A DNA stretch of 64,000 nt from Lingula anatina (Eukaryota; Animalia; Brachiopoda). The stretch covers positions 17,708,651-17,772,650 of the forward strand of contig CM120647.1 in NCBI GenBank assembly GCA_051362555.1, in the 5' to 3' direction. The notes beneath the pieces are model-generated. The model was not told the origin of the DNA, made no database searches, and saw nothing but the letters and a program-made list of their open reading frames with translations. Of this stretch, positions 23,463 to 40,179 are shown in pieces. Each line of letters starts with the position of its first letter. Within the stretch, counting starts at the first letter, position 1. The position numbers and the translations under genes are program-made.

Positions 23463-23596
23463 TTACAGTTTTGCTTTTAATTGCTTTGCTGCTCTCTTTC
23501 TGAGCTCCCGGCGGAGAATCTTTCCACTTGGAGACTTTGGTATTTCAGTGACGAATTCCACGCCGCCCCGTAGACGCTTGTGGGGCGCCAAGTGCT
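23463..23596 (-). CDS. 4CL/luciferase-like acyl-CoA synthetase, terminal exon 11b ([43 protein letters not shown])
   Basis: CAG acceptor; catalytic-Lys motif [14 protein letters not shown]1 AKL then TAA; same length (134 nt) as exon 11a. Confidence 0.88.
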
Positions 23597-23658
23597 CTGG
23601 AAGGAGTAGAAATGATGTAGGTAGATACGTCACAATTAATTTATCAAATCTCTTTTAA

Positions 23659-24260
23659 AGCAATAATAACTCTTCCTTTGAGATTCAAAATTCCGCATGA
23701 AATACATTGTAAACAACGCATGGAAATATATTCTATTGTATTTTACCACTAAAACGGCCGTTATTGTAGTAAAACTAAAATCTGTGCTTGTCAATAGGGC
23801 TTTCGATGCTTTCATCAAGGCATTCGTTGCTAATGACGTAATGGTGTCACGCGGATTCTCGCGTTCATTCGAGACCAAAATAACATATGCGGACGCAGAC
23901 GTAAGTTGCGAGTTTTTGTACAGTGCTTCGGATAATGAAAAGCCCAGGATGGCACACATTGTGGATATTAATGTATTTTTAACAAAAAGACGAATATATC
24001 TCATGAATCTTATATAGTGTTGTTGTTGTCTGCTTTTCCCGCGGTTTTAAGTAGGTCAACAGTGACTATGCGATGTCAGAGAGAGCTCCGTCAGTTAAAA
24101 TCTCTTAAGAGATTTTAACAAAAAACCGTACGTTTAGGAAAAAACCCTGGATTAACTTTGAATGCAGGAATGGGGTCGCTGACCATTGGTAAGTACGGGA
24201 AAATTGCCGTTTACTCCAGGAAAATCCAATTTTTGGCCAAAATGAAGAGTTATTATGACT
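23659..24260. mobile_element. Kolobok-like MITE in intron 10b
   Basis: TTAA|AGCAATAATAACTCTTC ... GAAGAGTTATTATGACT|TTAA. Same family as 2404-2740, including the 26-bp palindrome at 24094-24119. Absent from paralogous intron 10a. Confidence 0.8.
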
Positions 24261-24377
24261 TTAACAGGTACGGGAGAGAACTTCAAGGCGACTTCATTTT
24301 TATGTATAGTGTTTGTTCACTGATATGTAAGCGTTTTCTAATTGATATAATTTGAGCAAACTATCAAACATTCTCAC

Positions 24378-24543
24378 CTGCGACGAAATCGGATATATCT
24401 TGAACAGTAGCCGTGACGTCATGTTTTAATATGACGTAAGCTTTGGGCAGCTCGCCCGCTATCTCATCTGGGACTCCAATTACAGCTACGTCAGCAACAG
24501 CAGGGTGGGTGTGGATCAGGTTTTCAAGTTCTGCAGGAGCCAC
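24378..24543 (-). CDS. Acyl-CoA synthetase exon 10b (VAPAELENLIHTHPAVADVAVIGVPDEIAGELPKAYV...)
   Basis: TAG acceptor, GTGAG donor, 166 nt, canonical VAPAELE...GELPKA motifs. Confidence 0.88.
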
Positions 24544-24761
24544 CTAGCGATACATTTTCAGACTATTTACAAAAAGAGAAATGAGAACAAAGAAAATTCG
24601 GTTTGAAATCACAGGCGGCTGGACTATATATGTGTTAGCATTACTGTAAATGAAAGTTGCTAAAAGGAACGGGGGCTGAATCATAAGTTTTGTGTAAGAA
24701 TGCTCCATGAATCCACTTACAGCATAATTTTCATATACTGTGAAGTAATCTTCTGTCTTAC

Positions 24762-24844
24762 CTGAAATCCCTTGTATTTAATGAGTTCCTTTAGCCTGTC
24801 TACCACATAGAAATATCCTTCTTCGTCATAATGCCCAATGTCAC
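24762..24844 (-). CDS. Acyl-CoA synthetase exon 9b ([28 protein letters not shown])
   Basis: TAG acceptor, GTAAG donor, 83 nt, hinge motif [11 protein letters not shown]. Confidence 0.9.
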
Positions 24845-25051
24845 CTAAAAGAACATCGATCAACATCTTGTTAATATTTCCAACCGCATATAGAGCCAAT
24901 TAAATCTAGTACCATCTTAAGTCTGTGATAACAAGTCAATAATCTTATAATATTCTTGGTTTTGCAAATATCATCAAAAGTGAAAGTAAAGTGGCAACTT
25001 TATCCTAATCTGCTCGTTCAAAATCTAAATGCAACAAGAGATTGTAAAAAC

Positions 25052-25196
25052 CTGTGTGAAACCACTCGTCTTTGTCAATACACTCAGCAGTGGCTTGAGG
25101 AAGGTTGAAGTACCCTTTCATCACTTGGGGCCCACGGAACCAGAGTTCGCCATCTTGATTGGCACCAAGAACCTGTTTGGTTTCCGGGTCCACTAC
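25052..25196 (-). CDS. Acyl-CoA synthetase exon 8b ([48 protein letters not shown])
   Basis: CAG acceptor, GT donor, 145 nt, [14 protein letters not shown] motif. Confidence 0.88.
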
Positions 25197-25312
25197 CTGG
25201 GAACAGATTATTTCTTGTATTAAGTTGAAAAATCAGTTTGTGTCCTGTTATATAAACGATTTAAAGAATATCGATTCCTCAATGTTAGAGTTAACGCCTT
25301 CATTGGTAACTA

Positions 25313-37603: not shown

Positions 37604-37838
37604 GACTGGGTTCCCATGCCTAGATCGATCTAACAGGATCGATCCATCTCCAAGGGGTTTCTCATTAAATAAATTTCAGTTTAAGTGGTTAAGATGTCTG
37701 GCACGCCTACTGAAGCTGCTAAACGATAGTTAATTACCCCCTAGCAGCTTCAGTAGGCGTGACAGCAATTTAGCGAGAATCCCATCTGAGATAGATCGAT
37801 CCACAGTTTGTGCGATAGGGTCTGGGAATGGTCCCCAA
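37604..37838. mobile_element. Diverged member of the Harbinger-like MITE family of 10169/27111
   Basis: TTCCCATG..TAGATCGATCTA ... TAGATCGATCC..CTGGGAATGG ends; internal CGCCTACT..AAGCT motif. Confidence 0.5.
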
Positions 37839-38085
37839 GCCAATGGCAGAACCAGGCGTTAGCTTAATAGGCCATGTGTACCCTCCTCTCCTTAGGTAGA
37901 CACCCCCTTCTCCCCAATTTTTCGTCCCTTGATCCAACCCGTCACAGTGAAATTGAATTCCTCTACTGTTACATATCTGCCGAAAGAAGCAATGCTATTT
38001 TTCCTTGTTGCCCACCCATCTCCAGTTAAATTCTGGATCCGCTCTTCTATACCGCAGTTTCAAATACTAATGTCACAATACTCAC

Positions 38086-38291
38086 TCTATCTGCATCAGA
38101 TTAGCCACCAAATTGTAGTGCGTTAACATGACGGGTTTGGGCATCCCTGTTGTCCCGCTAGACGACGGTAGGATAGCCACGTCCTCACGGGTGTTAAACG
38201 GGACAAACGAGGGGAACGCTATGCCGTCGTCGTTGAGAAGAACGCTGAAGGGAAACGTGCCGACAGGAGCATCGCCAACTACATACACCAC
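38086..38291 (-). CDS. Acyl-CoA synthetase exon 4 with AMP-binding P-loop (…DVAILPSSSGTTGMPKPVMLTHYNLVANLMQI)
   Basis: AAG acceptor, GTGAGT donor, 206 nt ending in phase 2; SSGTTGxPK signature. Confidence 0.93.
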
Positions 38292-38594
38292 CTTGACAAA
38301 TAATGTGAATTTTCAGATTGATGATGACTGTCAGTTAGCTAAAACTATCATATTATCCATATCGCACATTAATTGAGTGTTTAATAATAAATTCAAATCA
38401 TAATCAAGTTTCCTTGTTAAATGAAGCACTATATTCGATATCTAGTACGAGTTTACAGGGACTCGTATGCGTTTTTAGGTCACTTGCAAGAAAGACATCG
38501 ACCATTATCAAGTTTTGGTGTGTAAGCAAATTAATTAATAACGTTTTGTTGTATTTTCACGCGCAGTGTGTCAGTCTTATTGCATTTCTCTCAC

Positions 38595-38701
38595 CTTCAA
38601 GTGTCCTATTTCTCGCGCCGCGTCCTTCACCTTGCTGACGTTCTCTGGCACTGTCATGACGAACGTCGCTTTGGTGCTGCGAAGCTGGTATTCTAATTCC
38701 T
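38595..38701 (-). CDS. Acyl-CoA synthetase exon 3 (EELEYQLRSTKATFVMTVPENVSKVKDAAREIGHLK)
   Basis: TTTTGCAG acceptor, GTGAGA donor, 107 nt; frame joins exons 2 and 4. Confidence 0.9.
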
Positions 38702-39057
38702 CTGCAAAACAGAACATAAATACATGATCTATCATTTTCTTAAATCATGCAGCGAGACGAGTCTCTCTCTCATTCTCTCAACTATTATTTTTGGAGGGTC
38801 CAAATCTTAGACATTTGCACAGCTAACTGATTCTGATCTTCTTATTAAGTATAATATCGTTCAATAATATCGTTCAATCATACTTATAGTAATGATGTAT
38901 TAGTTAGTAATAACTGTAGCCATGGGTCAACAGACAAAACCACGCTGTTGGTCTTCTCGAAGGAGAGTCGAATATTTAAAAGTTTTTTTATAAATTAATA
39001 AAAGTACTATGACGTATTTGACAGTGGCTAGACACAGATTTAAGGGGCGTCCTTTAC

Positions 39058-39265
39058 CCTCGGTGTAGAGTGGATTAACGGTAGTGACCACACCACCAAT
39101 GGCTAGAGCACCCAACAACCCGAAGGCGTACTCTGGCACATTGGGGCAGTAGACGCAGAACGCGTCGTTCTTGCGGAGACCTGCTTTGAAGAGCCCGCTG
39201 CCCACTCGACGGACGTTCTGCAGGAGTTCTCTATAGGTGAACTGTTGCCCCGTCTCTCCATTTAC
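39058..39265 (-). CDS. Acyl-CoA synthetase exon 2 (VNGETGQQFTYRELLQNVRRVGSGLFKAGLRKNDAFCVYCPNVPEYAFGLLGALAIGGVVTTVNPLYTE)
   Basis: TTTAG acceptor, GTAAAG donor, 208 nt; TYxEL and NPLYT motifs of the 4CL/luciferase family. Confidence 0.93.
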
Positions 39266-40059
39266 CTAAATGAAAGGCGTCGTTTAAATTTTAAAGAAAT
39301 TAGTAAGTTTACTGTCTTCAGTTATCTCAGGTTCTGTGTACATCCTGGTCCTTTATTTTTAACTCTATGGAACAACTAACGGGGGTTTGTTGTCGAAAGT
39401 CCCTTTGTTTTTTATATTTTAGTTAGCTTTAATAATCTGCATTGAAATGCAATAACTCAAAAGATTTTTGTTAGAGTGAAAATCAGCATGTGTTCCGAAA
39501 AATGCCCAGCTTAATACGAGATTTTTTAAAATAAGTTTTGAAATTGCGTTCTAGAAGACCCTAAAAACCGATTAAATTCACCTACTCCCCCACCCCTCCA
39601 ACCCACTCAATCCACTTTTCCCCCTCAAACAGGATGCCCAAAGCAGCAGAATGACATGAATGGCAGGACACCGAATCGCTGATAAGAAGGTGTGCACTTC
39701 TTGTGAAATCAGCTTTAGTTTTGTCAGTGACCTAAATAAACTAATATGCCATGTGGAAATGCAGTGGCACGCTTTGCAGGTCGTTTGAACTATGCACAGT
39801 ACACAGCTACACCCATCAAAAAGGCATGGTACGTGTAGAGAGAGGTATATGGGTGGAGGGGATGTTAAAACGCTGTTGCACTCGGAAAGTTTAACATTCC
39901 GGGGCATTGGGATTGGAATGGGAAATAAGAGGTACAATGAAATGCATATAAGCGCCGGGGTTGGGGGGTGGGGGGGATACAATGAAACACCTGTGGTTGG
40001 AGGGGAATGGGGGTGGGGAGTGGTGGGTGCATGGGGGTAACGTTGTTACCAGTTCTTAC

Positions 40060-40179
40060 CAGCGCCACTAAGTCTCCGTATTTCTCCGCATTCTGCAACA
40101 CAAACTCTGCCAGTGACACGTTCTCCGGTATCTCCACTGAGGGGAGCTTACTCCTAACTACTCCCTGAGCGTTCGCCAT
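40060..40179 (-). CDS. 4-coumarate-CoA ligase-like / luciferase-like acyl-CoA synthetase exon 1 (MANAQGVVRSKLPSVEIPENVSLAEFVLQNAEKYGDLVAL)
   Basis: ATG in GTCATGG context, 40 codons, GTAAGA donor. The joined CDS (exons 1-4, one exon 5, 6a-11a) is 1629 nt = 542 aa + stop. Confidence 0.92.

Follow-up and report, generated by a model that had tools for sequence, protein, structure and literature searches.

The 64-kb stretch of the Lingula anatina genome analysed here (64,000 nucleotides of contig CM120647.1, assembly GCA_051362555.1; in the following "the window", whose positions are used for all coordinates) carries on its minus strand a gene for a predicted acyl-CoA ligase related to 4-coumarate:CoA ligases (4CL) and luciferases. 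The gene has 19 exons, each bounded by an AG acceptor and a GT donor except at the start of exon 1 and at the two stops (Table 1). A single ATG and four constant exons are followed by three alternative versions of exon 5 (5a, 5b and 5c, 181 nt each) and by two full sets of exons 6-11, termed block a and block b, both of which close with AKL-stop. This anatomy had been described in a first-pass annotation of the stretch, and with all splice sites and frames found intact the architecture is confirmed as real. The accompanying statement that exons 1-4 exist only once holds within the window, to which our copy searches were confined and in which neither tblastn nor blastn found a second set.

All six joins of an exon 5 to a block yield a single open frame of 542 (block a) or 541 (block b) amino acids ending in AKL-stop. 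The intron phases of the two blocks match, and the frame stays open in each of the five possible single switches from a to b, so that in-frame hybrids, as proposed earlier, would be possible. Within the window block b has the make-up of a 3' tandem cassette: it repeats the terminal exons down to a separate stop and lacks a front half. We consider it rather probable that each transcript of this one gene contains a single pocket exon and a single back half, so that up to six enzymes would result, whose substrate ranges are predicted to differ. Of the ligases of 541-542 amino acids, at least six, that had been postulated, all six frames and AKL ends stand, but no junction into 5a, 5b or block b was seen in RNA reads of this nearly silent gene.

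Table 1. Exons of the ligase gene and remnants of a duplicated exon 5 (window positions)
Feature	Position	Strand	Remarks
Exon 1, constant	40060..40179	-	ATG at 40179
Exon 2, constant	39058..39265	-	Pfam AMP-binding, E 2e-16
Exon 3, constant	38595..38701	-	
Exon 4, constant	38086..38291	-	P-loop; atypical Ser188 and Pro198
Exon 5a, alternative pocket exon	36468..36648	-	181 nt; residues 238/239/242/243 are S, F, T, V
Exon 5b, alternative pocket exon	36032..36212	-	181 nt; residues 238/239/242/243 are I, F, T, S
Exon 5c, alternative pocket exon	35240..35420	-	181 nt; residues 238/239/242/243 are I, Y, V, Q
Exon 6a	32537..32705	-	opens block a (32705-30596)
Exon 7a	32053..32162	-	110 nt; full-length GYGxTE loop
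Exon 8a	31573..31717	-	
Exon 9a	31290..31372	-	
Exon 10a	30906..31071	-	Pfam AMP-binding_C
Exon 11a, coding part	30596..30729	-	ends AKL-stop; AATAAA at 30422
Dead copy, exon-5a acceptor region and 5' end	30038..30136	-	81% identical
Dead copy, exon-5a 3' end and following intron	28973..29283	-	77% identity; the 72 coding bases contain three indels
Exon 6b	28275..28443	-	opens block b (28443-23463); dN/dS against 6a 0.06
Exon 7b	27599..27705	-	107 nt; GYGxTE loop shortened by one residue; contains 7 of the 15 a/b differences
Exon 8b	25052..25196	-	
Exon 9b	24762..24844	-	
Exon 10b	24378..24543	-	Pfam AMP-binding_C
Exon 11b, coding part	23463..23596	-	ends AKL-stop; ATTAAA at 22976 as the closest poly(A)-like hexamer

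Two sets of alternative exons and their proposed history

The three versions of exon 5 encode 60 homologous residues each, with 33-47% amino acid identity and about 51% DNA identity. Using none, two or all three of them leads to an early stop at amino acid 224-325 (5/5 cases tested); as each is 181 nt long, the frame is kept, and a full protein obtained, only if exactly one of them is included. The trio thus has the features of a mutually exclusive cluster, i.e. tandem homologous exons of equal length and phase with intact splice sites and a frame that is otherwise broken. The introns flanking 5a, 5b and 5c align no better than shuffles in all six comparisons, which argues that the copies are old. 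Each exon 5 has no stop in its coding frame and two to six in the other two frames, and the differences are most frequent at third codon positions, a pattern that suggests selection on all three copies. We regard the cluster as very probably functional.

Two further elements lie in or near this cluster. A G-rich stretch in intron 4 (37917-37900, minus strand) is complementary to the acceptor pyrimidine tracts of 5a and 5c, with a score not above shuffles. The longest inverted repeat (35091-35133/32417-32459) seems to consist of a small palindromic element present twice; its two copies (35091-35157 and 32401-32459) form an inverted pair around exon 6a (43 nt, 84%), where their pairing in the pre-mRNA is possible and a mobile element more likely.

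Fifteen of 268 amino acid positions distinguish block a from block b, with a synonymous divergence (dS) of 0.25, a non-synonymous divergence (dN) of 0.024 and a ratio of 0.096 that does not exceed 0.15 in any of the six exon pairs. Against about 65 non-synonymous changes expected if block b were neutral, 14.5 are observed, and a neutral block b remained intact in at most 0.2% of simulations (2000 per setting). Insertions, including a Tc1/mariner remnant, are located in the introns of block b and none in its exons. Seven of the 15 differences fall in exon 7, four of them in the loop that follows GYGxTE; with so few differences, the choice between a and b would alter mainly this one loop. Gene conversion as the cause of the low dN was rejected, as it would lower dS too and the exon dS exceeds the 12% divergence between the introns of the two blocks, and so was an inflation of dS by CpG decay, which concerns only 7 of 52 differences.

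Block b had been described as having no exons 1-4 of its own, which is correct for the window. A dead copy of exon 5a, overlooked at the time, lies upstream of exon 6b in two pieces split by an insertion of about 700 bases, with local alignment scores of 68 and 153 as compared to shuffle maxima of 33.5 and 33. By codon position the dead copy differs from 5a at 6/24, 6/24 and 4/23 sites (in the 72 alignable coding bases only), and block a from block b at 7/269, 5/268 and 40/267 sites. Third positions have thus diverged alike (17% in the dead copy, 15% between the blocks, p 0.76), whereas first and second positions differ strongly (25% and 2%, p 3e-8), which indicates that the dead copy and block b are of the same age and have met opposite fates. 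It follows that purifying selection continued to act on block b after the loss of its exon 5, and this contrast supports the earlier proposal that block b serves as a second, alternative back half. The simplest reading is that block b is a partial duplication spliced to the upstream exon-5 donors, and we find it fairly likely that it is spliced to the exon-5 cluster today.

Based on these findings we propose that an old tandem exon duplication gave rise to 5a, 5b and 5c and that exon 5a through exon 11 were later copied in a partial duplication, which began some 75 bases upstream of the exon-5a acceptor; the first piece of the dead copy likely marks its breakpoint. The copied exon 5 would then have decayed, and exons 6b-11b would have been retained because 6b can be joined to the exon-5 donors with block a skipped, presumably upon read-through of the block a poly(A) site. 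A stretch at 28973-28943 (minus strand) that resembles the exon-5b acceptor, but has AA in place of AG, scores below shuffles and is no more than a hint; it would mean that a 5b copy was carried along as well. The Tc1/mariner remnant is a broken transposase (HTH_Tnp_Tc3_2 and DDE_3 domains) at 25845-26649 on the plus strand, in intron 7b.

Enzyme family and the predicted acid pocket

All eight exons scanned match Pfam AMP-binding or AMP-binding_C: exons 2 and 4 lie above the PF00501 cut-off and exons 10a and 10b above that of PF13193, and exons 5a-c and 6a match PF00501 below the cut-off, as fragments. The core ANL motifs, i.e. P-loop, gate His, YGxTE, TGD, hinge and terminal Lys, are all present. 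By these features the gene is a member of the ANL adenylating enzymes, in the 4CL/luciferase-like branch, with predicted ligase activity. The nearest proteins fetched are 4CL-like, bacterial ones reaching up to 53% identity, and among animal 4CL-like/luciferase-like acyl-CoA synthetases, a group that includes Drosophila CG6178, proteins from Owenia (CAH1791176.1, 49% identity) and Sycon (XP_065197322.1, 44%) match the product over its whole length. The Owenia protein ends in SKL. Both blocks close with AKL, which we take to be a variant of the peroxisomal targeting signal type 1 (PTS1), so the isoforms are likely peroxisomal, their import being predicted from this end. Likely candidate substrates would be carboxylic acids, whether fatty, aromatic or dietary, that are destined for beta-oxidation in peroxisomes; nothing indicates that the gene product emits light. 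Whole-sequence likeness has mispredicted substrates in this branch, e.g. for CG6178, according to an earlier study (PMC3098103).

Both variable parts had been assigned to the carboxylate pocket, and alignment to tobacco Nt4CL2, on which our mapping rests, and to its variant in PDB 5bsw bears this out. Residues 228-274, encoded by exon 5a, align without a gap to residues 228-274 of Nt4CL2. Exon 5 spans Nt4CL2 His237 and Tyr239; His237 is retained, and positions 238, 239, 242 and 243 vary among 5a, 5b and 5c. The loop after GYGxTE in exon 7 aligns to Gly339-Leu342 and is one residue shorter in block b; 5bsw is Nt4CL2 without the Val of GPVLA. Deletion of Val341 by itself is reported to confer activity on sinapate. 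Exon 5 may thus set the wall formed by residues 237, 238, 239, 242 and 243, and exon 7 the 339-342 loop, and the pocket of block b is likely roomier owing to its shorter loop. Tyr239 of Nt4CL2 touches the substrate ring and a swap of the 238-239 pair altered the kinetics of pine 4CLs (PMC12917453), the Gly339-Leu342 region with Val341 is described as excluding sinapate (PMC13341628), and a deletion in the loop is tied to sinapate use in At4CL4 and in soybean mutants (10.1101/2021.07.06.451337).

Transcript evidence and alternative readings

Eight same-species raw-read runs (of nine listed) were sampled to 6-30% of each, in two sets of four, the first for the whole locus, where it was swamped by repeat and poly-G reads, and the second for the exon-5 cluster. 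The gene is nearly silent in the eight runs, with depths of 0-0.42 in repeat-free exon bins (first set). In the second set three reads, from two of the four runs and all in sense orientation, lie on 5c. One of them matches 58 bases ending at 35239 and is then unlike the window, as judged from bin depths; 35239 is the 5c donor plus one G that exon 6 and the intron have in common, and we read this as a transcript spliced to exon 6, compatible with 6a and 6b alike. The first 28 bases of 6a and 6b are identical, and only a read that extends 29 bases or more into exon 6 would discriminate between them. The reads show trace transcription of 5c and nothing beyond, and a count of junctions, by which the proposed splicing was to be checked, yielded these three sense reads and one donor end at a coverage near nil. 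A tandem and dispersed 160-bp repeat at 33000-34800, in the intron between 5c and 6a, is covered hundreds-fold by RNA reads that stem from other parts of the transcriptome.

Several points weigh against a gene that chooses twice per transcript. Exons 5a and 5b had no read in any of the four runs of the second set, the bin at the start of 6b had depth 0 in all four runs of the first set, both at an expression too low to discriminate, and splice joints between exons were absent among the 15 of 162 joint rows listed, a table swamped by repeats. No docking or selector RNA pairing scored above shuffles in 11/11 region pairs (one genome, ungapped scan, no conservation filter), and the way in which six good acceptors would be skipped is left unexplained by a pairing mechanism. 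Within 700 bases past its stop block b has only ATTAAA and TATAAA, the canonical AATAAA, which follows block a, not being found there. Block b also holds the rarer residue at seven conserved columns (284, 337, 339, 340, 363, 411 and 490) among 130 mostly bacterial homologues, in none of which Glu replaces Gly411 as it does in block b; these residues fit relaxed selection as well as new function. On the side of the enzyme, Ser188 and Pro198 in the P-loop of the constant exon 4, where homologues have Tyr/Phe and Gly, occur in none of 164 fetched motif-bearing proteins and, being common to all isoforms, leave enzyme activity unproven, and in the pine study the 238-239 swap alone did not switch specificity (PMC12917453). 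Nor did the search for the same architecture at related loci reveal a close one: 2/190 and 19/39 candidates passed, with a best local identity of 50-74%, a profile search returned bacterial 4CL-like and unnamed proteins, a further search gave a best match of 57%, on exon 2, and a metagenome scan found five distant loci (51/64 parts scanned). Finally, the architecture was read from assembled sequence alone.

This last point also speaks for an alternative that accepts the exon-5 cluster but takes block b for an orphan, left over from a formerly complete tandem paralogue. The exons 1-4 and the working exon 5 of this paralogue would have been lost recently, be missing from this haplotype only or have been dropped in the assembly. 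The region is rich in insertions, no block b junction was found among the reads, at near-silent expression, and whole-gene tandem copies are usual in the family, as in the acyl-CoA synthetase arrays of beetles (PMC10798137). We nevertheless consider an orphan unlikely. It needs two separate recent losses, that of exons 1-4 upstream of 30136 and that of an intact 5b or 5c copy between 28943 and 28443, a stretch in which no alignment to exon 5 exceeds shuffles, and the sole exon-5 copy has decayed neutrally for about the entire age of the duplication. Moreover, the window contains no N, and the intron divergence of 12% together with a codon indel appears too high for collapsed alleles, an explanation we reject.

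The seven derived residues of block b at conserved columns, among them Glu411, its lack of a canonical poly(A) signal and the distribution of the trace reads, which fall on block a bins with at most one short read on a block b bin, could also mean that block b was formerly used and is now weakly used or decaying, and that today's isoforms all contain block a and are three in number, one for each exon 5. However, dN/dS stays at about 0.2 even if every non-synonymous change is assigned to b, the pocket loop alone accounts for four of the seven changes, and frames and all splice dinucleotides are intact, so we hold this to be quite improbable. More improbable still is the use of 5c only, with 5a and 5b as silent leftovers. 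All reads of the cluster lie on 5c, but three reads cannot rank exons, and 5a and 5b keep their length, frame, splice sites and LP-x-x-H core in spite of their low DNA identity and unalignable flanks, whereas the dead 5a copy shows the speed at which an unused exon decays here. We thus favour a gene with two choices per transcript; that all six enzymes are made tissue-specifically and have distinct substrate ranges, arising from three gate exons and a long or short Val341-type loop, is a doubtful extension of it.

Precedents and significance

UGT1, to which the first-pass annotation had likened the gene, uses alternative first exons and is a poor comparison. The novelty claimed for this enzyme family was likewise overstated, as alternative gate exons and 3' cassettes are both published. 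ACSL1 and ACSL6 have tandem, mutually exclusive exons for the F/Y gate domain, by which the LPxxH segment is exchanged (PMC1543647), and the ACSL6 forms are reported to differ in activity (PMC2868784) and in their preference for docosahexaenoic acid (PMC8262339). ACSL1/6 belong to the same enzyme superfamily, and here, too, the alternative exons cover the LPxxH gate segment. Unlike ACSL1/6, with their two 26-residue motifs, the Lingula gene has three 60-codon exons, lies in the 4CL/luciferase-like branch with a PTS1-type end and 4CL-like nearest proteins, lacks the D-x4-(F/Y)-LPLAH-x2-E motif and offers an additional multi-exon choice downstream. By sequence it works like the ACSL1/6 gate-exon system without being a member of it.

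The second choice resembles that of Drosophila CG42235, pip and PGRP-LC, in which a common front is spliced to one of several duplicated 3' cassettes. Each of these cassettes has several exons, five to eight in CG42235, and a stop of its own (PMC6191721). The blocks described here are likewise duplicated terminal exon runs with own stops and a common upstream part, known in our case from genomic sequence, but in contrast to the Drosophila cassettes they lie downstream of a mutually exclusive internal cluster, so that the choices would multiply. With Nt4CL2 and other plant 4CLs (5bsm/5bsw) the gene shares the fold family, a near-identical numbering and, in block b, the shortening by one in the same loop; whereas long and short loops are the property of separate genes or mutants in plants, they sit here in two cassettes of one animal locus. 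The beetle relatives, i.e. PACS and luciferases, diversify by whole-gene tandem copies, a splicing cassette not being described in the accessible part of that account (PMC10798137). Searches of the open-access literature, judged by their listings, showed no paper that describes cassettes of this kind for a 4CL/luciferase-like gene; isoform annotation of the species in databases may already hold them. Each half of the arrangement has a precedent, and their combination, with both choices bearing on the pocket, appears to be new.

The sequence of a 4CL/luciferase-like ligase is a poor guide to its substrates. If our reading is correct, six isoforms with a common front half that differ in two pocket walls would allow the effect of each wall to be separated in a natural background. 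Should all six be made and have distinct substrate ranges, nature would have provided a combinatorial library for the enzyme class that gave rise to beetle luciferases, and one gene would carry the one-residue loop deletion by which plants widen 4CL specificity. Together with ACSL1/6, the gene suggests a repeated origin of gate-segment splicing in acyl-CoA synthetases. Moreover, the locus is a datable record of a partial duplication becoming an alternative back half, as an exon that died and an exon block that was conserved, both equally old, lie next to each other.

A scan of the window with Rfam gave no match, and one open reading frame tested from a tandem array just downstream of block b had no match in Pfam; this array, which itself matched nothing in Rfam, extends from 10839 to 22629 and consists of about 8.5 copies of a 1.37-1.40 kb unit with 92-97% identity to one unit.

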